DNA from: an uncultured Chloroflexia bacterium | GTDB lineage: Bacteria; Chloroflexota; Limnocylindria; Limnocylindrales; CSP1-4 | Reading direction: 5' to 3' | NCBI GenBank assembly: GCA_963721655.1 | Contig: CAVRKH010000006.1 | Coordinates: 151,986-215,985 of the forward strand | DNA length: 64,000 nt | Shown here: positions 6,056-64,000 of the stretch, in pieces | Layout: every line of letters begins with the position of its first letter | Numbering within the stretch: the first letter of the stretch is position 1 | Program-made: the position numbers and the translations under genes | The notes under the pieces: model-generated | What the model was told of the DNA's origin: nothing | Databases searched by the model: none | The model's input: the letters and a program-made list of their open reading frames with translations, nothing else

Positions 6056-8072
6056 GTGATCGGCGGTCGGCGCCCGATCCAGGGCCGCAAGCCCGGCGAT
6101 CGGCGACTTCGGGTCGAGCGCCCTCATTCGCCCTACTTCCGCTACACCGGGCCCGGGCAGATCACGGCCAAGGAGGGCGCCAACGTCCCGGCGACGCGGG
6201 TCGGACGGGCGTTCGCCCGGATCAGGAAGGTCGTGCTCGGCAAGCCGCTGTCGTCGGAGTCGGAAAGCGAGGAACGGCTCTCGAAGGTCAAGGCCCTCGC
6301 GATCTTCAGCTCGGACGCGATCTCGTCGTCGGCCTACGCGACCGAGGAGATCATCCGGGCGTTCATCCTGGCCGGCGCCGCCCTGCTCGCCTTCCAGTTC
6401 GCGGTCCCGGTCGCGATCGCGATCGCGATCCTGCTCGGGATCGTCGCCTTCAGCTACCGCCAGATCTGCATCGCCTACCCGACGGGCGGTGGCTCGTACT
6501 CGGTCTCGAAGGCGAACTTCGGACGGCTCGCGTCGCTGGTCGCGGCCTCGGCACTGCTGATCGACTACAACCTGACGGTCGCCGTCTCCACGTCGTCCGC
6601 GGTGGAGCAGATCACGTCGGCGCTTCCGGGCCTCGCGCCGTTTGCCGTCGGGATCGGGGTCACGGCGATCGGCCTGATCACGATCGGCAACCTGCGCGGC
6701 ATCCGCGAGGCCGGCAATATCTTCGCGCTCCCGACCTACCTGTTCCTGTTCAGCGCGCTGCTGATGATCGCGCTCGGCGCCTACCGGATCATCGTGCTCG
6801 GCGAATCACAGCCGCCGCCGCCGGAAGCCCAGGCGGCCGTGGTGAACACCGCGCAGACCGTCAGCGTGCTGCTCCTGCTGCGGGCGTTCGCCGCAGGCGC
6901 CGTGGCCCTGACCGGCACCGAGGCGATCGCGACCGGCGTGCCCGCGTTCAAGCCGCCCGAGGCCAAGAACGCCGCTGCGACCCTCGTGGCGATGGCGGTG
7001 ATCCTCGCCATCCTGTTCATCGGGATCACGTTCCTCGCCGTGAACTTCGGGATCGTCCCGATCGATGAGCCGAAGCAGACGGTGATCGCGCAGGTGTCGT
7101 CGACGGTGTTCGGGGCCGATTCGTTCGGCTTCTACACCGTTCCAGGCGTTCACCGCGCTCCTGCTGTTCCTCGCCGCGAACACGTCCTTCGCGGCCTTCC
7201 CGCGCCTCGCCGCGGTGCTCGCCATCGACGGCTTCTTCCCTCGCCAGTTCAGCTTCCGCGGCGACCGGTTGGCGTTCTCGATGGGCATCGTCGCGTTGGG
7301 GCTCGTGGCGGCGTCGCTGGTGGTGGCCGCGGGCGGCAAGACGCACGCCCTCATTCCGCTGTACGCGGTCGGCGTGTTCATCGACTTCACGATCTCGCAG
7401 GCGGGCATGGTGCGGCACTGGCAGCGGGTCAAGTCCCCCGGCTGGCGGCGGCGCCAGGCGATCAACGCGTTCGGCTGTGTCGCGACCGGGATCGTGGCGA
7501 TCGTCGTCACCAGCGTGAAGTTCGCGGATGGTGCCTGGTTCGTCCTGTTGCTGATCCCGATCCTCGTCGCGGGGATGCTGTTCATCCGTCGCGAGTACGA
7601 CGCCCAGGCGCACGAGCTCGAGGTCGCGGACGAGCTCGTCGTCGAGGGGCCGCGCCGCGAGCAGCGCGTCGTCGTCCCGGTCAACGGCATCAACCGCGCC
7701 GTGATCCAGGCGGTGAACTTCGCGCGCACGATCAGCTCCGACATCCGGGCGGTGTACGTCACCGAGGACGACGAGGAAGGAGAGCGGCTGCGGAAGCGCT
7801 GGGAGCGACAGCTGCCGGGCGTGCCGCTGGTGATCGTCGAGTCGCCGTACCGTGCCCTGATCGGCCCGATCGTGGCCTACCTCGACGTGCTCGACAAGGC
7901 GTGGCCGCCGGACAAGCCGGCGCCGATCACCATCGTCGTGCTGCCCGAATTCGTCGCCCGCCACTGGTGGGACCGGCTGCTCTACAACCAGGCCGCGCGC
8001 CGCCTGAAGTCGGCGCTCGTGGGCCGCGAGCACACGGTCATCGCCGACGTCCCGTACCGCCGGGAGCACTGA
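6056..8072 (+). CDS. APC-superfamily permease with a C-terminal cytoplasmic domain (Rv2690c-like); the reading frame is broken by one extra base near 7139
   Basis: The N-terminal part (frame of 6056) reads ...AIFSSDAISSSAYATEEI...GFYT. It continues in the +1 frame as FQAFTALLLFLAANTSFAAFPRLAAVLAIDGFFPRQF... to the stop at 8072. The total of 2017 nt equals 3n+1. Confidence 0.8.
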
Positions 8073-48456: not shown

Positions 48457-48659
48457 GGCGTCCAGCGTACGCGGAGCGTTCCTGCCACTTACGCGTGGAG
48501 CGCGTACAAGGCGCGAACAGCGTCGCCGAACTGCTCCTGGTAAGCCCATGGCGGCTAATTCGCTGGGTTCGGGAGGACCAAATGCCGCCTAACACGCATC
48601 CCGTGCGTAAATGGCGGAGACGTGTGGAGACGAGGGGCTGCGTCAGCGACCTCGGGGTC

Positions 48660-48709
48660 TTGACAGGCCCGTCGCATCAACGTAGATTGATATAAACCGT
48701 CGTTGATGC
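48660..48709 (+). promoter_or_regulatory. sigma70-like promoter (TTGACA-17-TAGATT) embedded in a perfect 9-bp inverted repeat; candidate ArsR operator
   Basis: TTGACA at 48660-48665 and TAGATT at 48683-48688. GCATCAACG at 48674-48682 is the exact reverse complement of CGTTGATGC at 48701-48709. A third half-site-like TTGAT lies at 48687-48691. The region is locally AT-rich. Confidence 0.5.
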
Positions 48710-48719
48710 ATCAGCGACA

Positions 48720-49103
48720 TTGCCCCGAATGGAGGGCCCACTGTCCCCCTCACCTGCCCGCGTCCGCAGCACCGTCGCGTCGATCGTCGACCAGCCCGAG
48801 GAGCTGCGCGCCCTGCGGGCCTTCCACAAGACCCTCGCTGACGTGAACCGGCTGCGGATCGTTCAGCGGCTCGCCCGCGCCGAGGCGTCGGTCACCGAGC
48901 TCATCGACCACGTCGGCCTGTCGCAGCCGCTCGTCTCGTGGCACGTCGGCCGCCTCCGCGCCGCCGGCCTCGTCGAGACCCGGCGGGTCGGCCGCGAGAC
49001 GATCTGCCGGCTCCTGCCGGCCGCCTTCGAGGCGTTCCTCGACCGCGAGCGAGAGATCCTCGGCCTGGCCCACAGCGGCACGGCCCGGAGCGCCGCATCG
49101 TGA
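48720..49103 (+). CDS. ArsR/SmtB-family transcriptional regulator
   Basis: [59 protein letters not shown] is a winged HTH. The start is either TTG 48720 or ATG 48729. Confidence 0.8.
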
Positions 49104-49732
49104 GCGTGGTCACGCCGAGCCTGCGCGACCGCGTGCGCGGCATTGCCACGCCGGTCGCTCTCGCCATGGGTCGCGTCGGCCTCACCCCGAACGCCCTGAC
49201 CCTGATCGGGTTCGCCGGCACGTGTGCGGCAGCGATCCTCGCCGCCGTCCAGGCGTGGCTCCCCGCCGGGATCCTCGTGCTCGTGTTCGGCGCCTTCGAC
49301 ATGTTCGACGGCACCCTCGCGCGGGCAACCGGCAGGGCCTCGAAGCTGGGCGCGTTCCTGGACTCCGTCTTCGACCGCTGGGGCGAAGGGATCGTCTACG
49401 TCGGCATCGTCGCGGGCTGCGTCGCCGCCGACTACCAGGAGGGCGCGATCCTGGCCGCCGCCGCCATGACCTCGGCGTTCATGGTCAGCTATGCGCGCGC
49501 CAAGTCGGAGGGCCTCGGCTTCACCGAGGGCACCGGTATGGCCGCGGTCGGCCTGGCGCCACGCGAGATCCGGCTCGTCATCCTCACGATCGGGCTGCTG
49601 TGGACCGGCCTCGCCGGAGGCCTCGGGCCGCTCGCGGCGAGCCTCGGACTCATCACGATCCTCGCCACGATCACCGTCATCCAACGAATCCTTCACGTCG
49701 TGAACCAGAACAGGAAGCAGGAGAACCAGTGA
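49100..49732 (+). CDS. CDP-alcohol phosphatidyltransferase (phosphatidylinositol-phosphate synthase, PgsA1-like)
   Basis: [31 protein letters not shown] matches D(x)2DG(x)2AR(x)8G(x)3D(x)3D. The GTG start overlaps the arsR stop (GTGA). Confidence 0.85.
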
Positions 49733-50985
49733 GCAAGAACGGGAACGGCACCAACGGCGCGACGCCCAGCAACACGTGGGCCGGTGCAGGCCGCCGCAAG
49801 GACGGCAAGATCCGCGTCGCGATCGTGGGCGTCGGCAACTGCGCGAGCAGCCTCGTCCAGGGACGCTACTACTACGAGGACGCCACGGAGACCGACTTCG
49901 TCCCCGGTCTCATGCACGTGAACCTCGGCGGATACCACGTCCGCGACATCGAGTTCGTGGCGGCGTTCGACGTCGACAAGAACAAGGTCGGCAAGGACCT
50001 GTCCGAGGCGATCTACACGAAGCCGAACAACACGTACGTCTTCCAGAAGGTCCCGAACATCGGCGTGACCGTCGAGCGGGGCATGACCCACGACGGCCTC
50101 GGCAAGTACCTCAGCCAGATCATCGAGAAGGCACCCGGGCCCACCGCCGACGTCGTCGGCATCCTCAAGGAGCGCGAGGTCGACGTCATGGTGTCGTACC
50201 TGCCGGTCGGCTCCGAGGAGGCGACCAAGTGGTACGTCGAGCAGGCCCTCAAGGCAGGCGTGGCGTTCGTCAACGCGATCCCCGTGTTCATCGGCCGCGA
50301 GCCGTACTGGCAGCGCCGCTTCGCGGAGGAAGGTCTGCCGGTCATCGGTGACGACATCAAGAGCCAGGTCGGCGCGACGATCAGCCACCGCGTGCTGACC
50401 CGCCTGTTCATGGACCGCGGCGTCCGCCTCGACCGCACGTACCAGCTGAACTTCGGCGGCAACACCGACTTCCTGAACATGCTCGAGCGCGAGCGCCTCG
50501 AGTCCAAGAAGATCTCGAAGACCAACGCGGTCACCTCGATGCTCGACTACGAGCTCGACGACGACAACGTCCATGTCGGCCCGAGCGACCACGTCCCGTG
50601 GCTGCAGGATCGCAAGTGGTGCTACATCCGCATGGAGGGCACGACCTTCGGCGACGTGCCGCTCAACGCAGAGCTCAAGCTGGAGGTCTGGGACAGCCCG
50701 AACAGCGCCGGCGTCATCACCGACGCCATCCGCTGCGCGAAGCTCGGGCTCGATCGCGGCCTTGCCGGCACGCTGGTCGCGCCGTCGAGCTACTTCATGA
50801 AGAGCCCGCCGCAGCAGATCCACGACGACATCGCGTTCAACCGGGTCGAGGCCTTCATCCGCGGCGAGGACAACGAGGTGCTCGTCGGGACGGAGACCCC
50901 GGCCAAGCGGACCTTCCGCAAGCTCGCGGCCAGCAAGGCGTCCGCCGGGGGGGCAACGACCAAGACGCCGACCGCGGCGAAGTGA
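49729..50985 (+). CDS. ino1: myo-inositol-1-phosphate synthase
   Basis: [57 protein letters not shown] and SKKISKT. The GTG start overlaps the upstream stop. Confidence 0.9.
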
Positions 50986-51987
50986 CGGCGCGCGAGCGGG
51001 AGCTCGAGGCGCCCCACCGGCGTCTCGAGCCCGGACCGCGCATCGTCGAGAAGGCGGCCGTCGTCGGCTACAAGGCGGCCGAGCGCCTGCTCGGCATCCT
51101 GCCTCCGGGACCCAGTCGATTCGTGGCCAGCCGCGTCGCGCAGGCCTCGTACCTGCTCTGGCCGCAGAAGCGACGCTGGTCGAATCGCAACTTCGGGCAC
51201 GTCCTGGGGCTGTCGCCCGACGACCCGCGTGTCCGCCGGCTGGCCCTCCAGGCCTACGCCGAGTACGGCCGCTACCTGGTCGAGCTCGATGCGCCTGCCG
51301 TCCCGCACGGCTGCCGAGGTCGACCAACTTGCGGGCGACATCGACGTCGAGGCCGTCAAGCGGCTGCGCGAGGAGTCGCCCGGTGGGCTGATCCTGGCAG
51401 CGTCGCACATGGGCAGCAACGAAGCGGTCGCGGTGTCGATCGCCGATCACGGCCTGCCAATCAGCGTCGTGGCCGACGACTCCTCGTTCCCCGAGCTGTT
51501 CGAGCACCTTCGCAGGGAGCGCGAGCAATGGAGCGTGACGCTGATCAAGTGGCGCAACCTGCGCGGCATCTTCGATGTGCTGCGCAAGCGCGAGATGCTC
51601 GGGCTCCTCGTCGACTGGGGCTACCGCGCGGACGGGATCCCGGTCCGCCTCTTCGGCGACTGGACCACGCTGCCGGCCGGTCCCGCCACGCTCGCCGCGA
51701 AGACGCGCTCGTGGATCGTCTCCGTCCACATCAAGCGCAGGAGCGACGGCAGGTTCCACCTGTCGTGGAGCGAGCCGATCGTGGTGGCGTCCACCGACCC
51801 GGCCGAGCTCCAGCGCGCCACACAGGCCATGGCCGACGAGCTCACCGCGATCGTCAGCGCGGCGCCGGAGCAGTGGTACAACTTCAAGCCGATGTGGCCG
51901 GCGTCGGCCGCAGAGGCGGCCGACCTCGAGCGGCGGGCCCTGGTCATGCAGGCAGGCCAGCCGGACCCGGGTCCCGGGCGCCGATGA
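50982..51987 (+). CDS. lysophospholipid/lipid A-type (LpxL/HtrB/PatA-like) acyltransferase, copy 1; frame broken by one extra base near 51288
   Basis: [35 protein letters not shown], then in the +1 frame MRLPS...[15 protein letters not shown] (HX4D-like HMGSNE) ...[19 protein letters not shown]...PAGPATLA. 1006 nt equals 3n+1. Confidence 0.75.
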
Positions 51988-52982
51988 CGACGGCCCGGCC
52001 GAAGCGCCGCCGCGGGACATTCGTGCAGGAGGTCCGCGCGCGGTTGCTCGGCGCGCTGGCGTGGGTCGCCGGGCGGCTGCCCGAGGGACCGTTGATCCGC
52101 CTGGCGGAGCTGGCCGGCTCGGCGTGGTACCGGGCAGCTCCGGAGCGGGCCGCACAGGCCCGGCGCAACCTGCGTCGCGTCGCGCAGGCGCTCGACGAAC
52201 GCGGACTCGGGTCGGCCCCGGTTCGTGCCGCCGCCCACGACCCGGCTGCGCTGGAGCGCCTCGTCCGGGCGGCCTTCCGCCACAACGCCCGCTACTACCT
52301 CGAGGTGGTGCGCGCGCCCTCGCTCCGCCCGCGGGACGTCGACGAGCGGATTCTCGTGGAGACGCCGGAGGTCGTGGCGGCTGCGTTCAGCGCCGGCGAG
52401 CCCGTGATCTTCGTCGGCCTCCATTTCGGGGACCTCGAGCTGCCCTCGCGGATGCTGGCCGCGCACGTCGGACAGGCCGTCGCGCCGATGGAGACGATCG
52501 GCGATCCGGCCCTCCAGGCGTACTTCGAGCGGACGCGCGGGGCGAACGGCGTGCGGATCGTCGGCCTGCGCGAGGCGCGCCGCGAGCTGCTCGGCGCGCT
52601 GCGTGACGGTGTCTCGGTGGGCCTCGTCGGGGACCGCGACCTGACCGGCGGCGGCGTCGGGGTGACCCTCTTCGGCGCGCCGGCGACCCTGCCGCTCGGT
52701 CCGGCGCTGCTGTCGATCGAGAGTGGCGCCCCGATGTACGTCGTCGGCGTTCGGCGGGCCGGGCGCGGTCGCTACCGGGGACGGCTCGAAGCGATCCCGA
52801 TGCCGCCCGAGGGTCCGCGCCGCGAGCGGGTGATGACGGCGACGGCATCGGTCGCGGCAGCCTTCGAGCGGATCATCGCCGACGCCCCGGAACAATGGTG
52901 GGCGGTCTTCTTTCCGATCTGGCCGGACCTCGAGGCGGCGCCCGAGGTCCAGGAGCCGGTGTCCGTCGGGCGGACCGCATGA
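51984..52982 (+). CDS. lysophospholipid/lipid A-type (LpxL/HtrB/PatA-like) acyltransferase, copy 2
   Basis: ARRNLRRV...AAFRHNARYYLEVVR, VIFVGLHFGDLEL (HX4-like), VGLVGDRDLTGGGVGVTLFG and PLGPALLS. The ATG overlaps the upstream stop (ATGA). Confidence 0.75.
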   Translation: MTTARPKRRRGTFVQEVRARLLGALAWVAGRLPEGPLIRLAELAGSAWYRAAPERAAQARRNLRRVAQALDERGLGSAPVRAAAHDPAALERLVRAAFRHNARYYLEVVRAPSLRPRDVDERILVETPEVVAAAFSAGEPVIFVGLHFGDLELPSRMLAAHVGQAVAPMETIGDPALQAYFERTRGANGVRIVGLREARRELLGALRDGVSVGLVGDRDLTGGGVGVTLFGAPATLPLGPALLSIESGAPMYVVGVRRAGRGRYRGRLEAIPMPPEGPRRERVMTATASVAAAFERIIADAPEQWWAVFFPIWPDLEAAPEVQEPVSVGRTA

Positions 52983-53791
52983 GCCACGACGGCGACACCG
53001 AGCCGACCCCGACGGGTCGCGCGGACCTGCACCTCCACACGCTCGCGTCCGACGGGACGGCGGGCGTCCTCGAGATCCTCGAGCACGTCGAGGCGGAGAC
53101 GAACCTCGACGTCATCGCGATCACCGACCACGACCGCATCGACGCGGCCCTGGCAGCCCGGGCGATTGCCGCCGATCGCGGCATGCGCGCCGAGGTGATC
53201 GTCGGTGAGGAGGTCTCGAGCCTGGGCGGCCACGTCCTCGCGCTGTTCGTGGACACGCGGATCCGCCCCCTCCGCACGCTGAGCGCCACGGTTGCCGAGA
53301 TCCACGACGCGGGCGGCGTGGCGATCCCGGCGCATCCGCTGGTCCCGTACCCGCTGTGCGCCCAGGGCTGGGTCATCCGCGGGCTGCTCGACCGCTCCGA
53401 CGAGCGGTTCCACCCCGACGCCCTGGAGACCTTCAACCCGACGATGCTCGGCCGGCCGTGGCACTCGAAGGTGGTCCGCTTCGCCGAGGACAATGGCCTG
53501 GCCATGGTCGGCAACAGCGACGCGCACGCGCTCGGCGCGATCGGCGCCGGGTGGACCGAATTCCCGGGCCGGACCGCGGCCGACCTGCGCGCCGCGATCG
53601 TCGCCCACGAGACGGTCTTCCACGGGTCGTTCCACGGGACGTCGGGCCAGGTCCGCACGTTCGGGCGCCAGCTCGCGAAGTACGGCCGCGATGCGCACGC
53701 GGGGGTCAAGGGCCGGATCCGGCGCGATGGCTCCGGTCGCGACCTCGGCTATCCGGCCGAGCACGGCCCGCTCGACGAGGCGCGGCGATGA
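52979..53791 (+). CDS. PHP-domain (polymerase and histidinol phosphatase family) metal-dependent phosphoesterase
   Basis: ADLHLHTLASDGT, VIAITDHD, AIPAHP and VGNSDAH motifs. Both ends overlap the neighbouring genes by 4 nt. Confidence 0.8.
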   Translation: MSHDGDTEPTPTGRADLHLHTLASDGTAGVLEILEHVEAETNLDVIAITDHDRIDAALAARAIAADRGMRAEVIVGEEVSSLGGHVLALFVDTRIRPLRTLSATVAEIHDAGGVAIPAHPLVPYPLCAQGWVIRGLLDRSDERFHPDALETFNPTMLGRPWHSKVVRFAEDNGLAMVGNSDAHALGAIGAGWTEFPGRTAADLRAAIVAHETVFHGSFHGTSGQVRTFGRQLAKYGRDAHAGVKGRIRRDGSGRDLGYPAEHGPLDEARR

Positions 53792-55033
53792 AGATCGGCC
53801 TCGTCTGTCCGTACATCTACCCCGACGGCGGCGGCGTCGCGCAGCACGTCGGGTACCTCTACGAGAACCTCCGCCTGCGCGGCCACGACGTGCGGATCAT
53901 CACCGCCAGCCACGGCCCGCAGCGCTCGTCGGAGGGCGACGTGATCCGGCTGGGCGTCGGCTTCTCGGTCCCGACCAACGGATCGATGGGGACGCTGACG
54001 TTCTCGCCGCGCTACCTCGGCCAGATCAAGCGCGATGCTCGAACGGGAGCGCTTCGACGTCCTCCATTTCCACGAGCCGTTCGTGCCGTTCCTGTCGCTG
54101 TTCCTGCTGCGCGAGTCGACGAGCGTGAACGTGGCCACGTTCCACGCCTACGCCGGCTTTTCGCCGTCGTACGAGTTCGGCAGTCGGTTCCTCGGCGGGT
54201 ACGCCGAGCGCCTGCATGGCCGGATCGCGGTATCGGCCGCGGCCCGCCACTTCATCGACCGCTACTTCCCCGGCGACTACAAGCTGATCCCCAACGGCGT
54301 CGACATCAGCCGCTTCGATCGTGCCGTCCCGATCGCGCGCTGGCAGGACGGGACGCGCAACCTGCTGTTCGTCGGGCGGCACGAGCCGCGCAAGGGCCTG
54401 CTCGACCTGCTCAAGGCGTACCGCCTGCTGCGCAAGACCGGCTGCGACTGCCGGCTCCTCGTCGTGGGCTCCGGGCCGCAGGAGCGCGAAGCCCGGCGCT
54501 ACGTGGCGATCCGGCGGCTCAGCGGCGTCGAGTTCCTCGGCCGGGTGAGCGACCGCGCGAAGGCGCAGCTGTTCAAGAACGCCGACGTGTACGTCTCGCC
54601 GGCCACCGGCGGCGAGTCGTTCGGGATCGTGCTGCTCGAGGCGATGGCCGCCGGTGCGCCGATCGTGTGCTCGGACATCCACGGCTACAAGGGCGTCGTG
54701 CGGCGCGGGCGCGAGGCGCTGCTCGTCCCGCCGCGCAGCCCGAAGGCCCTGGCCGGCGCGATTGCCACGCTGCTCAACGACGACGCCGCCCGGATCGCGA
54801 TGGGCGAGGCCGGCCGTGCCCGCGCCGAGGACTTCAGCTGGCCGCAGGTGACCGCACGCGTGGAGTCGTACTACAACTTCGTGATCCGCCGCCTGGCCGC
54901 CGGCGGCCAGCTGCCCGAGGGCTATTCCGGGCCGATCCCCACTCGCCACGCGGCGCAGGAGCCGCCGCCGCCGCCAGCCGTCGACGTGAACGCCGGGGAC
55001 GGCACGGGATCGAGCGTGGGCGTCGCTCGCTAG
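53788..55033 (+). CDS. GT4-family glycosyltransferase (PimA-like phosphatidylinositol mannosyltransferase); frame broken by one extra base at about 54034
   Basis: MKIGLVCPYIYPDGGGVAQHV..., then in the +1 frame FDVLHFHEP, LLFVGRHEPRKG and SPATGGESFGIVLLEAMAAGAPIV (the E(x)7E region). 1246 nt equals 3n+1. Confidence 0.8.
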
Positions 55034-58000
55034 CTCGGGCTTCCTGCGCGAGCCTCCTTGCCCTTGTCCGGCGGGCCCTCCTCGTACAGTCGCCGCTCCA
55101 CGGCGGCGAGTCGCCAGGTCCAGGCCGAATAGGCCACCACGAGGCACGTCACGAGCAGGCCGAGGACGAGCACGGCCATGACCGGCGTGGCGAAGTTCGT
55201 CGTGGAGCTTCGGGCGATCGTGCTCACCGGGAACTGGAAGTCGTACAGGTACGTCGGCAACAGGCCCTGGTACGCGTTGACCATCGACGACGGCAGGGGC
55301 AGCGCCGAGATGTTCGGGTAGAACACGATGAACGTGACGACGATCGCGATCACCAGCCCGCCCACGAACCGGCGCGCGTCGCGAGTCGCCAGGACCTGCA
55401 GCGCGAGGTAGCCGAGCGGGATCGCGACGAGCAGCGCGATGGGTTCGACGGGAATGTTGTCGAGCACCAGGAACGGCGTGTCGGCGATCGCGCTGGATCG
55501 CCAGCAGCGGGACGGCCGCCCCGGCAAGCACGACGGCCCCGACGCCGACCCACCAGCGCACCGAGCGATCCTGCGCGACGCGGGGCAGCGTCCAGCGGCC
55601 GCCGAGCGCGAGGAGGAACAACAGCACGCCGATCCCGACCGCGAGGGCCAGGCCCAGCGTCCGCCACGTCAGCACGAACTGCGGGATGTACGGCGGGCAG
55701 GCCGCGGACGGGTTGTGAACCGCGAGCACGTCCACGAACCCGCACAGCGGCCGGGAGAACACGTGCATGAGGGCTGGCGCGACGATCGCCAGCGCGGCCA
55801 CGGCCTTGGCGAGGAACCAGGTCCGACGCGACGCCCCGTGCCACAGCTCGGCCACGAAGTAGGCGAGGGCCAGGATCACGAACGGCAGCGCCGTGTAGTA
55901 GTGGTACTGGAACGCGGCCCGGTCGATGCGCCCCCACGGGATCCACTGCGCGGCGAAGCCCACCGCGATGAGCGCCAGACCGAGGCTGCGCCGCTTGAAC
56001 GACTGGTACGCGACGAACGCCATCGCCGGGACGCCGAACCACCAGATGGCGAGGTTGCCGGCGTCATAGATCGCCGCCGACGTGCCGTCACCGAAGCCGC
56101 CCTGGTAGAACCAGACCGGCTTGAGGTCGAACGGCCACGCCCACCACGGCGACGACGCGGCGTGGGCCGACGTGAGCTCGTTGTGGTAGCGATACATCTG
56201 GCCGGTCAGCTCGAGCAGGGTCTGGCCGGTGTGCCCGGGCGGCCAGCCCGGCACGATCTGGTAGCCGTCGAGGGCGGCCCACGGCAGGTACGAGATGACG
56301 TAGACGACGACCGGCAGGACGACGAGGCTCGCGGTGGCCCACACGATGGGGATTCCGAACAGCCAGCCGGGCCGCAGCCAGCCGGCGGGCGGCCGCGCCG
56401 GCGGTTCGAGGAAGCGCGCGGGGTCGTCGGCTGCCGGCGGCGCGGCCAGCGGCCCGAAGCCGTACTGCCGCCCGAGCCAGAACAGGCCGTACACGACCAG
56501 TGAGCCGAGGGCGAGGGCGATCGCGAGGTCCAGCGGCCGCACGAGGATCGGACCGAGCGCGTACTCGGTCGACAGCCGACCCGTCGCGAGGGCGCCGAAG
56601 AAGACGAGGGTGCCGAGGCCGGCCGGCCCGAGCACCGCCAGCCGGAACTCCTCGTCGGACCAGGCGACCGGATGGAGCACCGAGGCCAGGACCGCCAGGA
56701 GCGTGAGCCCGATCATGATCAGCAGGAACGTCACGTTGCCGAACGGCGAGGCGCTGCCCTCGGGCACGCTGATCGCGATGTAGCCGAGCACGGCGGTCAG
56801 GGCGATGAGCCCGCCGATGGCGAGCACGCGGCCGAGCGCGCTTCGAACGAGGATCAGCAGGATCAGCGCGCCGATCGCGTAGGCCGCCACCCATTTCGAG
56901 GCCAGGGCAAGGCCCAGCAGCAGGCCGATGACCGGCATGGCGAGCCAGAACGCCCAGCGGCTCTTCCAGAAGCCTGTCCAGATCGCGGCGAACAGCGTGT
57001 ACGCGGCGATGATGAAGAGCCCGACGAACGCGTCGTTCATCGCGATCCGCGACTGCGCGAAGAGCATGCCGTCGACCAGCGCGAACAGGCCGGCGAGCAG
57101 CGCCACCTCCCGCCGCCGGAAGAGGATGCGCGCGAGCACGTACAGGAGGCCCGCCATCAGCGCGCCGGCGATCACCCCGGGCATCCGCCAGCTGAACGCG
57201 TGCTGACCGATCTCGACGGTCGCCCCGCTCCCGTCCGCAGCGAACGCCAGGAGCTGCTGGCGATCGCCGCCCGGACGCCCCTCGTCGATGTCGAAGGCCC
57301 ACGCCGAGGGGTCGAACGGCAGGCGCGCGTCGGCGTACACGGCGTTCGCGTGCGGCTCGACGACGTAGACCGTGGATCCGCTCCCGTCCGGCGTCCGGCC
57401 GAGGATGTGCACCTGACGCGTCGGCACGTCGTAGCCGATGCGGCTGCCGAGGCCGGGCAGCGGGTACGTGTTGGCGATGCTCGGGCCCTTGTCCTCGGAG
57501 TCCTGCCCGAGGTCGACGACGGCGTACGTCGGCTTGTCCGCGGTGCCCGCCGTCGCGTAGTACTTCTCGTCGTCGATGTTGGTGATCGAGGCAAGGCCGT
57601 GGGCGCCACCCTCGAGCGGGAACGCCCAGAGCTCGTCGCCGGTCGCCCGGTCGAGGAAGGCGACCCCGTCCCCGTCGGCCACCAGCACCTGCTCGACGGG
57701 GACGATCTCGATGCCCGGCAGCTCACCGGCGTCGATCGCGTCCTCGACGTCCGTCTGCTCGCCGTTGCCGAGCCCGCCGATCGTGACGCGCTCCTCCCCG
57801 GACGCGAGTTGCGCTTCGATCACTCGCTGCGTCCCCGCCGAGCAGCTCGGCCAGCCGCCCGGCGACCGCGGCCGGGTCGTCGATCGAGGCCGGAGTCGCG
57901 ACGACGGCCGAGCCGGAGCCGACGTCGGCGGCCTCGACGAGGCCCGGTCGCTCCGTGTCGAGCGTGACCTCGCCGGTCACCGAATCGACCACGAGGAGCC

Positions 58001-60423
58001 GGTCGCCGGCAGTCGCGAGGACCGTGGTGCCGTCCTCTGCGACGGCGAGGCGGTCGACGGGAACTCCGAGGTCGGCGACCTGGAACGGCTCGACGCTCTC
58101 CGCCCCGCCGATGTCGAGCTGGGCGAGGTCGAGGGTGTACAGCTCCCCGGCCTCGGTTGCGGCGAACAGCTGGCTCGCGGTCGGATCGTGGGCCAGGGCG
58201 CCCGTCGGGCCGAGGTCGTACCGCGCGACCTCGGCGCGCGAGCCGAGGTCGTAGCCGCGAATCCCCGTGTCCGTCGCGAGCCACAGCCGTGCGCCCGTCT
58301 GGTCGCCGGTCGCGATGTCCGTGTGGCGCGGCTCGACCAGCGCGTCGTTGACCGGGGCACCGAGCGAGCCCGTGGCGCTGACCTTGTCGTCGCCGAACGC
58401 GGTGATCCCGGCCGCGATCAGGTACTTGCCGAGGTGCGGGTGGGTCCACTCGTAGATGTTGCTCTCGTCGCCGTAGCGCCAGTCCTGGAGGAACTCGGTC
58501 GCGGTGCGCGCGTGGTAGACCTCGTCGAAGTGCATGTTCAGCGGCTCCCCGAGCCGGAACGTGCGCAGCACGAGCGTGGCCACGACCAGCACCACGAGCA
58601 GCCACAGGTCGAGCTTGTCGAGGCGACCGCCTCGCTCGTGGGCAAGCGCGGCGCTCCGGTCGGGCACGACGGGCCGCTGGTCGAACCGTTCGCGGAACCA
58701 CAGGCCCAGCGCGCTCTCGCCGAGGATCGCGCTCGGGCTCCACACCGGCGACGGCTGCTGCGGCTCGGCTTCGTCCGGCCCGGTCGCATCCGCGGCCCGA
58801 TACACGACCGCGGGGCCGGCGACCGCGGGGCCGGCGAACGCCGCGCCGGACGCGATGGGTTCCGGGGCCGCCTCCGGGATGGGCAGGAGCTCCTCCTGGT
58901 CCGCGTCGATGACGCCTGCCTCGGCGAACTCGTCGGCCAGCCGTTCGCGGCCGTCGGCGCGCAGCTGGACGAACGCCCAGACCAGCCCGAGCAGGTGGAC
59001 CATGGCGATGATCGCGACCCACAGCTCGTCGTTGATCGACCCGCCGATCCCGAGCCAGTCGCTGATCCTGAAGCGACTGTTGTCGTAGATCGTGGTGAGG
59101 ACGACGTACATGTTCAGGAACGTCGCGACCGACAGCGCGACGTACGCCACCCGCCAGCGGATCGACACCGCGGCGAGGATCGCGGCAAGGGCGTAGAACG
59201 GGAACAGGTAGCGTTCGTGGACGCGCGTCGGCACGACGAAGAACACGAGCGCGAGCACGGCGAGCGCCACGAGCAGCGTGCGTCTGTCCGGGTGGCGCGC
59301 GGCGATGATCACGATCAGCACGATGGACGCGAGCAGCAACGCGCTCCCCACGGCGACCGCCGGCAGCGGGCCGATGAACGCGGTGCCGGTGCTGCAGCGG
59401 TCGCCGCCGCTGAGTGTTCGGACCGATGCCCGTCGTGTCGCACATCCACAGCCCGTCGTGGGCGAGCGTCAGGCCGCTGTCGCCGGGGACGAGCGCCCAG
59501 GGGTTGTAGGCGTTGACGGTGACGTACGGGTAGCCTCCCGCCGCCCGCCCGACCTGCTCGAGGAGCCCGGAGCGCACGAATGGCGCCTGCGGGGTCAGCT
59601 CCACCACCGACAGGTTGAACGGGGCCGCGAGGATGACCGCCGTGATCAGCCCGGCGAGGCCCGTGGTCAGGATCCGGATCGGACGGCCGGTCTCGCGCTC
59701 CCAGGCCAGGAACCGCCCGAGGAGGCCCGCTCGCGGCTCGATCGGGTCCGGCGGCGGATCGTCGCCGTACCCGCCGGCCGGCCACAGCGCCCGGCGGATC
59801 GTGATGATGGCGACGAGCGGCACGAGGATGCCGAGCTGCGGCTTGATGACCGCCGCGAGCATCGTGAAGATCGCGGCCCGCTCCGGGCGGTCGCGCCACA
59901 GCTCGCGCAGGCCGAGCAGCAGGAACACGACGCCGAACGAGTCGACCTGGCCCCACACGGCGCTGTCGAACCAGCTGACCGGGTTGAGGACGAAGAACAG
60001 GGCCGCGAGCAGCGCCACCGACTGGCGCGCTCCGAGCTCGCGGGCCATCGACCAGGCGAGGTAGCCGATCGCCGCATCGGCCAGGATCGGCGGGAGCTTG
60101 ATCAGGTCGCCGATGCCGCCCAGCCACGGAGCGACCGAGCCGATGAGCCACAGGACGTACATGTAGCCCGGGGTGTAGTCGATGAACCCGCTCTGGTAGA
60201 GCGTTCCGGGACCCTCGGTCGCCAGGCGGCTCGCCCACCCCTGGAACGAGATGATGTCGGTCCCGAACCCTGATCCCGGCAGGAGGACGTATGCGATGAT
60301 GAAACGGAGGGCGAGCCCGAGCGCGAGCACGAGCGCGATCGCGCCAACGGCCCCTGGAATCCCGGTTGACCGTTGCGGCGGGCGCGTGCCTCGCTCGGTC
60401 CCGCCTCTGGCGGGGCCAGTCAC
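55030..60423 (-). CDS. giant polytopic membrane protein of about 1,797 codons: an N-terminal GT-C module fused to a PMT (GT39-like) protein O-mannosyltransferase module with a large loop insertion. Three single-base frame breaks (about 59410, 57833-57836, about 55495)
   Basis: - Module 1: FGTDIISFQGWA, DYTPGYMYVLW, LNPVSWFDSAVWGQVDSF, and HERYLFPFY after the first frame break.
- Linker: Ala/Pro-rich.
- Module 2: MHFDEVYHARTA...EWTHPHLGKYLIAAG, about 395 aa of insertion, then SRIAMNDAFVGLF, QYHYYTALPF and the C-terminal TM segments.
- Continuity: no in-frame stop separates the modules.
- Length: 5394 nt minus 3 extra bases gives 1797 codons. Confidence 0.6.
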
Positions 60424-60513
60424 CGGGGGATCGGCTCCTGCACGAGCGTGAAAGTGGATCGGAGCGTAGCACAGGGTCGCCCTGCGGACCCCCGGACGGA
60501 TGGCTGGTCGGAC

Positions 60514-61894
60514 GTGCGGTCCGTACCGTGGCTCGCGGCCGCGGTTGGCGTCGGTTTCGTCATCGTCGCCCTGGCGGTGTACACGCGGACCCTCATCGAC
60601 CGCCCGTACGACCACTTCGTCTGGCAGGCGGCCGCGTTCCTCGAGGGCCAGGCCGCGATCCGCTACCCGGTCCCGGGCAACGAGTACTACCAGGACGTGC
60701 TGCCGGTCGCCCCGATCGACGGCATCCCGCGCGGGCTGATCCCCTTCCCGCCGCTGCCCGCCGTCATCCTCATGCCGTTCGTCGCGCTCGGCGGGCTCGC
60801 CACGAGCGGCCAGGTCGTGTTCGTGGGCCTCGCCGCGCTCGATGTCGGGATCTGCTGGTGGCTGCTCGGGCGGCTGCCGCTGCGCTTCTGGGTGCGGATC
60901 GCGGGAACCGCCTTCTTCGCGTTCGGCACGGTCTTCTGGTACGCCGCGCAGCTCAACACGACCTGGTACCAGGCCCACGTCGCAGCGATCGGCCTCGCGA
61001 TGCTCGCCACGGGGTTCGCGATCGGCGCGGACCGGGCGGCGGTCGACACCGAGGAGGCACCGACGTCGAGCCGCGACCTCCTCGCGACGATCCGCCGTGA
61101 CGGCCTCGCGGTCGACGGGCGCCAGTTCCTGATCGGCCTGCTGTTCGGGCTGGCGTGCACCGCCCGCCTCACGATGCTGTTCGCGGCGCCGTTCTTCGTG
61201 CTCGTCGGGAGCGGCGGCAGCTGGTGGCGGCGCGGCTGGTCGGCCGGCCTCGGCGCGGCGCTGCCGGTGATCGTCCTGTTCGCGTACAACCTGGTCACGG
61301 CCGGCAACGTCCTCCACCCGGCCTACGAGTTCCTCTACCAGGCCGAGGCCACCTACTACCCGACGCTCGGCTACAACCTCGACTGGGCCATCGAGGATCC
61401 GCGCTACATCCCGCAGAACCTCGGGATCATGCTCTTCAGCCTGCCCCTCTTCGCGCCGGACACGTGGCCCGATTCGCTCCGCGTCACGACCGATGCGTTC
61501 TGCACGGAGGCGGGCGCCGCGCGCGGCCTGTTCGACGTCTCGTGCCCGCTCGCCGTCCCCAACGACATCGGGATGAGCGTGCTGCTCACCAGCCCCGCCT
61601 ACCTGCTGGCGATCCCGGCGCTTCGGCCGGTTCCGCACGAGCCGGATCGTCGCAGGCGCTACCATCGCGGTCCTGCTCGTGGCGATCGTCAACCTCATGC
61701 ATTTCAGCCAGGGCTGGGTGCAGTTCGGCTACCGCTTCAGCAACGATTTCGTCCCGTGGGCCGTCATCCTCGTGGCACTCGGTGCCGAGGCGGTTGCCCG
61801 GCGGGGGGCGGGCGCCGTCGTCGGCGGCCTCGTCGTCGCCTCGATCCTCGTCAACGCCTGGGGAGTCGCGTGGGGCAATCTGCTCGGATGGTGA
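60514..61894 (+). CDS. polytopic membrane protein, GT-C-like (ArnT/PMT_2-like) glycosyltransferase candidate; frame broken by one extra base near 61627; start uncertain
   Basis: More than 10 hydrophobic segments, with loop motifs YDHFVWQAAAFLEG and FGTVFWYAAQLNTTWYQAH. The C-terminus FSQGWVQFGYRFSNDF... lies in the +1 frame. 1381 nt equals 3n+1 from GTG 60514. Confidence 0.5.
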
Positions 61895-63427
61895 GGCTGA
61901 TCACGATCGGACCCCCGATCGCGGTCGGCCTGATCGCGTTCGCGCTCGTGGCGCGCGGGCTCCAGCCGGGCCTCGCGTTCTGGGACACGGCCGAGCTGCA
62001 GGTCGTCGCCCCGCTGATGGGCACCGCCCATCCGACCGGCTTCCCGACCTACGTGCTCCTCGGCTGGCTCGCATCGGTCCTCCTCCAGCCGTTCGGCGAA
62101 CCGGCCTTCCGCATGAACCTGTTCTCGGCGATCTGCGTCGCGGTTGCCGCCGGCGTGACGGTGGACCTCGTCCGCGTGCTGACGCGCTCGCGCTGGATCG
62201 GCGCCGTGGCCGGGCTCGGGCTCGTGCTGACACCGCAGGTCTGGGTGATCGGCACGCACGCCGAGGCGCACTCGCTGCACCTCGCGCTCCTCGCCATCCT
62301 GCTCCGTCTGCTCGTCGGGTGGGAGGATCGGCGGCGCGCGCCACCCGACGATCCTCGCCGCGAACGCGCCGACCGCTGGCTCGTGGCCGCGACCGTCGTG
62401 TTCGCCCTCGCGGTCGGCAACCACTCGCTGACACTGCTCCTCGCACCCGCCATCGCGGCCTACGTGATCGCGGTGGAGCCGGGGATCGTGCGGCGCGTGC
62501 GGCTCGTCGCGACCTGTCTCGGGGCACTCGCCGTGACGCTGCTGGTCGTGTACCTCGAGCTGCCCCTGCGCGCCGGCCCGTTCCGCGCGCCGCTCGTCTA
62601 CGGCCAACCGGACACCTGGGACGGGTTCCGCTACATCGTCCTCGCCGAGCAGTTCCGGGGCAGCGTCGACAGCCCGTTCGGCAACCTCGACACCAAGCTG
62701 GTCGATCTCGTCGGACGAACCGCCAGGGAGTTCGGCCTGCTCGCCGTGCTCGTTCCGTTCGGGTTCATCGCCACTGCAATCCGGCGCCCGCGCTACGCGC
62801 TGCTCACCGGCATCGCGCTCGGGCTGACGGTGTTCTTCGCCGCGTCCTACGACAACGCGGCGATCGAGCGCTACTACCTCGGCCCGATCCTCATCTGCTG
62901 GACCTGGCTGGCCATCCTGGTCGCGGCCGTCGTCGACATCCTCGCCCGGGCGCCGGTTCTCCGACGCGTGCGGCAACCTGCACCCCCTGATCCGACCCAT
63001 CGCCGTCGGGGTGCTCGCGACCGGCATCCTCCTCGGTCCGGCGCTGATCGACTTCACCCATCGCGCCCGCGCCGCGGACCGCAGCCATGACACGATCGCC
63101 CAGCGCTGGCTCGACCGGGTGGTCGACGTGCTCGAGCCGAACGCGGTGGTCGTGAGCTGGTGGAGCTACTCGACCCCGCTATGGTATGGAAAGCACATCG
63201 AGGGGCGGCTCCCGGGCGTCGACATCATCGATGATCGGACGCGCCTCGACGAGGATCTTGGGAGCCCCACGGACGTCGTCAACCGCTATCTCGGCGAGCG
63301 TCCGGTCTACGTGATCCGCCTCGACGACTGGCAGGATCTTGAGGAGGAATTCGTCATCGAGCCCGTGCCGATGCCCATGCCCGACAGCCTGTGGCGCGTC
63401 GTCGGGCGACGCGAGGACGCCACGTGA
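61888..63427 (+). CDS. DUF2723 (TMEM260-like) membrane glycosyltransferase candidate; frame broken by one extra base near 62953
   Basis: FWDTAELQVVAPLMGTAHPTGFPTYVLLGWL...FRMNLFSAI resembles the DUF2723 N-terminal signature. The C-terminal soluble domain (VVVSWWSYSTPLWYG...VYVIRLDD) lies in the +1 frame. 1540 nt equals 3n+1. The ATG overlaps the upstream stop (ATGGTGA). Confidence 0.65.
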
Positions 63428-64000
63428 CCGCGCGCGTCCCGCGCCTGTCGTACTTCTTCCCGGCCCACAACGAGGAGGCCAACCTCGCCGGGCTCGTCGA
63501 GGAGGCGCTCGAAACGTTGCCCGGGCTGGCGGACACCTTCGAGATCATCGCCGTCGACGACGGTTCGCGCGACCGCACAGCGGGCGATCGCCGACGAGCT
63601 GGCCGCGGCGCACCCCGACCTCGTGCGCGTCGTCCACCACCCGACGAACCTGGGCTACGGCGCCGCGCTCCGCTCGGGCCTCGGGGCCGCCCGCTACGAG
63701 CTCGTCGCCTTCACCGACGGCGACCGGCAGTTCCGTGTCGCGGATCTCGGCCGCCTGACCGAGCGGCTCGCCGGGGGCGACCAGCCGGATGTCGTCGTGG
63801 GCTTTCGCATCAAGCGCGCCGACCCCCTGGTCCGCACGATCTACGCGCGGCTGTACCGCCTTGCCAACCGCATCTTCTTCGGCCTGAAGATCACCGACGT
63901 CGATTGCGCCTGCAAGCTGTTCCGGCGCGACGCGCTGGAGAGCCTGCGCGTCGAGTCCGGCGGTGCCTTCTTCTCGGCCGAGCTGCTGATCAAGCTGCGG
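63424..64000 (+). CDS. GT2-family polyprenol-phosphate glycosyltransferase (Ppm1/DPM1-like), 3' end outside the window; frame broken by one extra base in the G-run at 63582-63584
   Basis: LSYFFPAHNEEANL...FEIIAVDDGSRDRT, then in the +1 frame AIADELAAAHPDLVRVVHHPTNLGYGAALRSG...AFTDGDRQF...DVDCACKLFRR. The GTG start overlaps the upstream stop (GTGA). Confidence 0.8.
   Translation, partial: MTARVPRLSYFFPAHNEEANLAGLVEEALETLPGLADTFEIIAVDDGSRDRTAGDRRRAGRGAPRPRARRPPPDEPGLRRRAPLGPRGRPLRARRLHRRRPAVPCRGSRPPDRAARRGRPAGCRRGLSHQARRPPGPHDLRAAVPPCQPHLLRPEDHRRRLRLQAVPARRAGEPARRVRRCLLLGRAADQAA

Follow-up and report, generated by a model that had tools for sequence, protein, structure and literature searches.

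We analyzed a window of 64,000 nucleotides from the genome of an uncultured Chloroflexia bacterium (Chloroflexota; Limnocylindria; Limnocylindrales; GenBank assembly GCA_963721655.1, contig CAVRKH010000006.1, positions 151,986 to 215,985) and found that the region 55030-60423 on its minus strand is almost certainly one gene for a polytopic membrane protein of about 1,796 amino acids, in which an ALG6-like glycosyltransferase module of the GT-C type (module 1) is followed by a protein O-mannosyltransferase (PMT) module that carries a propeller domain (module 2). The broader account, in which the three breaks in this gene are sequence errors, the two modules are joined by a linker, the PMT ends in an extension and the protein works by the mechanism proposed below, is in our judgment likely. 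A sequence-only reading of the same DNA had recognized the frame and the fusion; the propeller, the C-terminal extension and the window-wide pattern of errors had escaped it. The parts of the gene are listed here, with residues numbered on the stitched protein obtained after removal of three bases.

55030-60423, minus strand: whole gene, 1,796 codons plus stop after three base removals; overlaps a convergent PimA-like gene by 4 nt.
58938-60423, minus strand: module 1, residues 1-495, predicted ALG6-like GT-C (AlphaFold2, Foldseek, invariant columns).
58653-58937, minus strand: linker, residues 496-590 (conservation profile, dN/dS, hydropathy, intact reading frame).
58383-58652, minus strand: start of the PMT, residues 591-680, with the first transmembrane segment (TM1), the DE motif (D633, E634) and the HPHLGKYLIAAG juxtamembrane helix (invariant columns).
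57212-58382, minus strand: predicted WD40-like beta-propeller, residues 681-1070 (AlphaFold2, Foldseek, acidic loop).
55742-57211, minus strand: PMT transmembrane core, residues 1071-1560, Pfam PMT, PMT_2 and PMT_4TMC, with SRIAMND (D1130) and RIDRAAFQYHYY, which holds the R-x2-F motif (Pfam, invariant columns, lowest dN/dS).
55033-55741, minus strand: C-terminal extension, residues 1561-1796 (hydropathy, AlphaFold2 helices, conserved motifs).
59415, minus strand: extra base 1, AAC-A-CTC, in module 1; the exact base is ambiguous by a few nt (alignment with the nearest relative, Viterbi).
57827, minus strand: extra base 2, net +1 within 57821-57828, in the propeller insert (alignment with the nearest relative, Viterbi).
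55489, minus strand: extra base 3, CAG-C-GCG, in the C-terminal extension (alignment with the nearest relative, Viterbi).

Because the window is about 71% GC and long open reading frames (ORFs) arise by chance on both strands, coding regions were located from the GC content of third codon positions (GC3), using a sliding analysis of its phase together with a 7-state Viterbi segmentation. The two methods agreed on minus-strand coding from approximately 60343-60423 down to approximately 55053, divided into four frame segments with changes at 59414/15, 57830/31 and 55487/88. Every change is the same +1 step, i.e., one surplus base in the window. Deletion of one base per site gave a stitched translation of 1,796 codons plus stop, running from GTG at 60423 to TGA at 55030-55032, and this protein matched P0001, an uninterrupted protein of 1,791 amino acids, with 92% identity over 100% of its length. 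GC3, Viterbi segmentation and the P0001 match all bear out the single minus-strand frame that had earlier been assembled by three +1 corrections, and every motif quoted at that time is present in the stitched protein, in which FGTDIISF occupies residues 53-60, WGQVDSF 157-163, HERY 402-405, FDEVYHA 632-638, HPHLGKYLIAAG 661-672, SRIAMNDAF 1124-1132 and QYHYY 1505-1509. The fusion itself is visible without any frame correction, since the junction lies inside an unbroken ORF (57723-59351) that holds the C-terminus of module 1 (HERYLFPFY), the linker and the N-terminus of module 2 (FDEVYHA, HPHLGKYLIAAG). As had been claimed, there is no in-frame stop between the modules, and a stop/start pair at 58700-59000, which would have indicated two genes, was looked for and is not present. 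GC3 stays at 0.93-0.95 and its phase is unchanged across the linker.

The fusion was also found well beyond this window. Among the matches listed, 120 homologues of the stitched protein were 1,639-1,862 amino acids long and 54-92% identical to it; BLAST coverage was at least 97% for 116 of them, 90% for one and 68-69% for three. When one genome was scanned for each species, at least 582 stretches encoding a relative of module 1 were found. We examined the best 80 of these loci, nearly all labelled Chloroflexota, Chloroflexia, Limnocylindria or Limnocylindrales, and all those with enough downstream sequence were colinear into the PMT module, mostly in one frame. The search for orthologues with the same fusion, which the sequence-only reading had proposed, thus returned them both as protein clusters and as genomic loci. 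Where names were given, the homologues were called 'phospholipid carrier-dependent glycosyltransferase' (Chloroflexota/Candidatus Limnocylindrales) or 'Gpi18-like mannosyltransferase/BamB'. More distant fusions, with 39-46% identity in module 1, had longer inserts and reached 2,012-2,390 amino acids. Although the length and sequence of the linker vary, no homologue had a stop within it. Judged from these sequences, this architecture is not confined to one genome and is the usual state throughout a class of Chloroflexota from soil and freshwater; the copy in the window is an ordinary member of an undescribed family whose sequences are already public under generic names.

The nature of the three breaks was examined with the help of the nearest relative, L001 (ENA ERZ25039531 contig_38954), which encodes P0001 and aligned to window positions 48659-63998 at 91.7% nucleotide identity. 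Over these 15.4 kb the window contained eight uncompensated single-base insertions relative to L001 (at 63579, 62970, 61622, 59415, 57821-57828 with a net +1, 55492, 54032 and 51287), spread over at least five genes: a GT2, a TMEM260-like gene, a gene for a 460-amino-acid protein, the fusion gene (three times), a PimA-like gene and another gene upstream in the same operon. Across the whole window we counted about 16 same-strand frame changes without a nearby stop, or about one per 4 kb (for example, at 7140, 24888, 32992, 39148, 41302, 51289, 54035, 61622, 62957 and 63577), and wherever a relative exists these are single-base insertions in non-homopolymer contexts. The breaks in the fusion gene do not behave as gene boundaries, because the upstream frame meets no stop for more than 1.4 kb after breaks 1 and 3 and for 106 nt after the middle one. 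P0001 crosses the three sites uninterrupted (GPNLSGGD, LLGGDA..EAQL and LLAIQAMADTPF). Similar breaks were found within this gene in 12 related loci, at varying positions, and 10 of the 12 bear MFD-prefixed isolate names; loci with other naming (k141_, NODE_) are mostly in one frame, except for L066 and L068. Long-read assemblies produce single-base errors of this kind. From these comparisons we concluded that the three breaks are most probably assembly indels of the long-read type, and neither programmed frameshifts nor signs of pseudogenization. Error-prone assemblies split such genes, and ORF-based annotation of this window would fragment them.

Programmed frameshifting was rejected as an explanation, as relatives cross all three sites in-frame and the +1 breaks also hit unrelated neighboring genes. 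A true pseudogene with three real frameshifts in this organism would account for the fact that the window sequence, as given, is not translatable as one product, and for the non-homopolymer context of all three breaks. We nevertheless regard it as highly improbable. Equal +1 breaks occur in at least five neighboring genes and about 16 times across the window; those in relatives are concentrated in the MFD-prefixed loci at varying positions; and the GC3 signal persists undiminished downstream of each break. Moreover, after correction the ratio of nonsynonymous to synonymous substitution rates (dN/dS) against L001 and a second relative, L002, was 0.20 for module 1, 0.10-0.13 for the PMT core, 0.15-0.19 for the propeller insert and 0.42-0.44 for the linker, and at a divergence of about 8% of nucleotides from these relatives such values indicate purifying selection rather than decay. 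Another way to read the region is as two ordinary adjacent genes, one for a GT-C enzyme and one for a PMT, whose stop/start pair has been masked by a sequence error in the linker. The window is indeed error-prone, and the linker is poorly conserved and carries a 15-nt indel relative to L001, but at least 120 independent protein clusters, along with dozens of assemblies that come from different projects, run in one frame through it, in the window the junction has no stop, and the GC3 phase is constant over it, so that the two-gene interpretation is effectively refuted.

Module 1 was assigned from its predicted structure, since searches with the single sequence and with a profile gave no significant match. 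An AlphaFold2 model built from 20 fused and stand-alone sequences (predicted local distance difference test score, pLDDT, 82.9; predicted template modeling score, pTM, 0.88) had yeast ALG6 (6snh) as its top Foldseek match in PDB, with an E value of 3e-6 and TM-scores of 0.64/0.67, followed by Gpi14/PIG-M, PIG-U, ALG3, ALG9, STT3/AglB, ArnT, PglB, Emb and Pmt. The best 33 PDB matches all had the GT-C fold, and the model thereby shows this fold for module 1. The earlier assignment to ALG6/ALG8- or DUF2029/Gpi18-type GT-C enzymes was therefore right in kind, ALG6 being the best structural match, and the concern that module 1 might resemble no GT-C family did not materialize. Invariant in the 20 sequences, at 34-55% identity, were D56, D116, K194, Q196 and H402-E403-R404-Y405 of the PTRVHERY motif. 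D56 lies in GF.xD right after TM1, in the first outer loop, is invariant in the fusion family too and is probably the catalytic residue of module 1. It has been reported that Asp99 and His378 are essential in ALG6 (PMC10859629). H402 may correspond to this histidine, as suggested by the region of the Alg6_Alg8 profile that is matched in homologues.

An exhaustive search yielded 3,762 representative relatives of module 1, including stand-alone proteins of 465-510 amino acids at 34-38% identity. The stand-alone proteins weakly matched Pfam Alg6_Alg8, GT87 and PIG-U, and those with names were mostly from Limnocylindria or Chloroflexota. For Alg6_Alg8 (PF03155, cut-off 25 bits) stand-alone homologues reached at most 23.1 bits, and for GT87 (PF09594, cut-off 25 bits) one homologue (P0229) scored 30.4 bits and others 20.9-23.3; the window protein had no hit to either. 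Precomputed PF09594 annotations were present on a few fusion proteins. A pre-fusion state, with a module 1 gene and a PMT gene side by side, was looked for; in the two neighborhoods inspected, no PMT gene was found beside the stand-alone module 1 gene, and module 1 thus appears to be a self-sufficient unit. The N-terminal peptide MTGPxxGGxERGTxxPxRxTG (residues 1-20, window 60364-60423), predicted to be cytoplasmic, is strikingly conserved across the fusion family, and a looser MT..P...G form is seen in several stand-alone homologues of module 1.

PIG-U has the GT-C fold and is not a transferase. Module 1 could, by analogy with the role of PIG-U in the glycosylphosphatidylinositol (GPI) transamidase, be a non-catalytic partner of the PMT, serving as a scaffold, as a dock for the lipid carrier or as a tethered pseudo-dimer partner that mimics the obligate Pmt1-Pmt2 dimers of eukaryotes. 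PIG-U chains ranked third, fifth and sixth among the structural matches, the Pfam PIG-U model picks up several homologues, and by Pfam module 1 belongs to no catalytic family. PMC7759382 and PMC12705809 also describe eukaryotic PMTs as acting as dimers of two GT-C subunits. On the other hand, D56 and the PTRVHERY motif are invariant in fused homologues and are kept even in stand-alone homologues of 34-42% identity, a pattern like that of an active site; the active enzyme ALG6 is a better match (TM-scores 0.64-0.67 versus 0.43-0.56 for PIG-U); and stand-alone copies occur without a nearby PMT. We consider a non-catalytic module 1 unlikely.

Module 2 exceeded the Pfam cut-offs for PMT (PF02366, residues 1069-1192; 45.6 bits, cut-off 22.7), PMT_4TMC (PF16192, residues 1401-1559; 59.3 bits, cut-off 32.4) and PMT_2, whereas the actinobacterial NCBIfam Pmt equivalog model (NF058602) gave 42.7 bits against a cut-off of 800. 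By these profiles it is a member of the PMT family and not a Pmt equivalog, and its identification as a PMT of family GT39 in the sequence-only reading, with an intact DE motif, was correct. In an alignment of 67 sequences, D633-E634, D1130 and R1501-x2-F1504 were invariant. In the Mycobacterium tuberculosis enzyme MtPMT (Rv1002c), the catalytic D74 of the DE motif, D176 and R441/Y444 are required for activity (PMC12331936), and by motif rather than by structural superposition these probably match D633, D1130 and R1501/F1504. Candidate catalytic residues are thus invariant in the alignments of both modules. The PMT core also has the lowest dN/dS in the gene.

A loop of 449 amino acids separates TM1 (approximately residues 595-623, numbered on P0001) from the next hydrophobic span (1073); it has no such span of its own and is strongly acidic (78 D/E versus 22 K/R). 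In an AlphaFold2 model (pLDDT 81.5, pTM 0.82) about 390 of these residues are all-beta, mostly with pLDDT 85-94, and Foldseek matched this domain to 7-bladed WD40 propellers (TLE1, TMt 0.69; a Thermomonospora WD40 protein, 0.71) and to BamB (0.53). The model supports a WD40-like beta-propeller. As the insert is within the first outer loop, the propeller would share this loop with the catalytic DE motif, just after it. Beyond PMT_4TMC, the C-terminal extension of about 235 amino acids has, by hydropathy and in the AlphaFold2 model, about 4-5 more membrane helices, with the conserved motifs YPN, LPLP and YQG..PTYLY.FQFP.

The linker, which had been put at about 100 amino acids rich in Ala, Pro and Glu, does have this composition and is about 95 amino acids long. 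Its conservation profile shows it to be poorly conserved and of variable length, its ends are Arg-rich by charge and hydropathy, and we describe it as disordered. The N-terminus of MtPMT is cytoplasmic, and this topology and the Arg-rich ends suggest that the linker is on the cytoplasmic side. A gene for a rhomboid intramembrane protease is near the fusion gene in 52 of the 80 loci (L001:4950-5657; L083:4909-5676), beyond the right end of the window. Processing of the two-module polyprotein by this protease would be pure speculation.

The neighborhood of the fusion gene is syntenic with those in L001 and two further relatives, L083 and L084, and this synteny is kept down to 55-63% protein identity. 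The adjoining features, including an operon of the phosphatidylinositol (PI) mannoside (PIM) type, are listed below.

53781-55033, plus strand: convergent PimA-like GT4 gene, last in the PIM-type operon, frameshifted near 54032-54035 (synteny, PDB match).
Approximately 48758-55033, plus strand (L083:15289-21746; L084:15646-21803): PIM-type operon, converging on the fusion gene and conserved across Limnocylindria.
60557-64000, plus strand (L084:6245-9971): divergent operon for a polytopic protein, a TMEM260-like/PMT_2 GT-C and a GT2.

The PIM-type operon encodes an HTH regulator, a PI-phosphate synthase, an inositol-3-phosphate synthase (Ino1), two PatA-like acyltransferases, a PHP_C protein and the PimA-like GT4, and resembles the actinobacterial pgsA1-patA-pimA arrangement. 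The best PDB match of the GT4 was mycobacterial PimA, over the full length (E value 3e-62), followed by PimB' (4e-22), and mycobacterial PatA was the sole PDB match of the two acyltransferases. PIMs are described, in the bioRxiv version of PMC12041525, as unique to mycobacteria and related bacteria. In the divergent operon all three genes are frameshifted in the window (61622, 62970 and 63579). Its polytopic protein (about 446-480 amino acids, about 460 in the window) had no Pfam or NCBIfam match and is possibly another GT-C; the GT2 (about 255 amino acids) was most similar to polyprenyl-phosphate sugar synthases, namely PpgS, ArnC, an archaeal Dol-P-Man synthase and GtrB. Together, the fusion gene and the divergent operon place three or four lipid-carrier-dependent transferases at one locus. 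In all relatives inspected, this locus is a few kb from dnaN-recF-dciA (L001:1-2571; L083:1-2525; L084:1-2557) and is likely to be close to the replication origin. A 737-amino-acid Arg-rich gene call on the minus strand of L001 (2630-4843) was set aside as a likely spurious antisense ORF; at this place L083 and L084 have a plus-strand gene for 756-757 amino acids, which matched no Pfam family.

We propose that both modules would be catalytically active at the outer side of the membrane and would use the same polyprenyl-phosphate hexose, supplied by the adjacent GT2. This donor sugar is most likely mannose, as the PMT module and the PimA neighborhood suggest. The PMT module would mannosylate Ser/Thr residues of exported proteins held by the propeller, the ALG6-like module would add a further hexose either to the O-mannose or to the PI-mannoside-type lipid of the neighboring operon, and the fusion would keep the two activities in 1:1 proximity. 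Candidate roles of module 1 are therefore extension of O-mannose, mannosylation of a PI-mannoside-type lipid in the manner of PimE or MptB, and a non-catalytic function like that of PIG-U. We lean towards both modules being catalytic. That they are also functionally coupled, through a common acceptor or by linking protein with lipoglycan synthesis, is a tentative and rather doubtful suggestion. Several observations weigh against the proposed mechanism. Residues 1-600 of the stitched protein had no match in Pfam (at E<0.1) or NCBIfam, and a PDB sequence search with module 1 gave chance matches only for the single sequence (E values of about 0.4-0.5) and none for a 20-sequence profile; its fold also resembles that of PIG-U. 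The GT2 is most similar to PpgS and ArnC rather than to a mannose synthase. The PIM-type operon converges on the fusion gene and is not co-transcribed with it, which leaves their functional link suggestive at most. The cytoplasmic side of the linker is drawn from charge and the known PMT topology. Finally, the putative processive two-step glycosylation is plausible and takes the action of both modules on the same molecule as an assumption.

Comparison with known systems helps to place this protein. As a rule, a GT-C enzyme has one catalytic module and works with others as a separate protein or in a non-covalent dimer. Like other PMTs (GT39; MtPMT and yeast Pmt1, Pmt2 and Pmt4), module 2 passes the Pfam PMT and PMT_4TMC cut-offs, has the DE motif in the first outer loop, an aspartate in the TM3-4 region and R-x2-(F/Y) in a late outer loop, and probably has its N-terminus on the cytoplasmic side. 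It differs in being fused behind another GT-C module, in its additional C-terminal membrane helices (about 235 amino acids) and in its soluble domain: the propeller of about 390 amino acids is in the first outer loop, whereas in eukaryotic PMTs a MIR beta-trefoil is found further on, in the loop that connects TM7 and TM8, and MtPMT lacks any large soluble domain (PMC12331936). Module 1 has its best structural match in yeast ALG6 (6SNH), one of the ALG6/ALG8 glucosyltransferases (GT57); like ALG6 it is an all-membrane GT-C without a large soluble domain, and its homologues weakly match the Alg6_Alg8 profile over the region with the invariant HERY. However, its sequence identity to ALG6 is 12%, it has no Pfam match and its homologues are below the Alg6_Alg8 cut-off; it is bacterial, and a dolichol-PP-GlcNAc2Man9 oligosaccharide cannot be its acceptor. 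With GT87 (PimE, MptA/B/C) and the GPI mannosyltransferases (Gpi14/PIG-M, Gpi18/PIG-V) module 1 shares the GT-C fold. Some of its homologues pass or approach the GT87 cut-off, JGI calls the family 'Gpi18-like mannosyltransferase', and the gene adjoins an operon of the PimA/PatA type, the pathway of PimE, although no PimE is named among the 50 structural matches listed and the window protein lacks a GT87 hit. Similarly, the Pmt1-Pmt2 heterodimer and the Pmt4 homodimer have two GT-C membrane modules side by side, but the modules described here are covalently joined and come from different GT-C families.

In the literature searched, the coverage of which was incomplete so that this is an absence of evidence only, we came across no account of two fused GT-C catalytic modules, nor of a PMT whose first outer loop carries a propeller; likewise, this architecture did not appear in the equally incompletely covered literature on PMT in Chloroflexi and on Limnocylindria glycosyltransferases. 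A class-wide fusion of different GT-C modules offers a test case for donor sharing and substrate hand-over between lipid-linked-sugar transferases. TMTC enzymes use TPR repeats, and a propeller in the catalytic loop of a PMT may have arisen independently as a way to recognize acceptors, besides the TPR repeats of TMTC and the MIR domain of eukaryotic PMTs. Besides, the PimA/PatA/Ino1 neighborhood is a hint that PI-mannoside-type glycolipids are made by abundant uncultured Chloroflexota of soil and freshwater. One doubtful possibility is that Limnocylindria make a mannosylated envelope like that of actinobacteria by means of one machine of about 190 kDa. In it a propeller-guided PMT would be covalently joined to an ALG6-like elongating or lipid-mannosylating GT-C, and the machine would either initiate and extend O-mannose in one pass or couple protein O-mannosylation to PI-mannoside/lipomannan-type synthesis. 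If true, this machine would be the first case in nature of two catalytic GT-C modules fused together, and the organisms that carry it would have a PIM-type pathway outside Actinomycetota.

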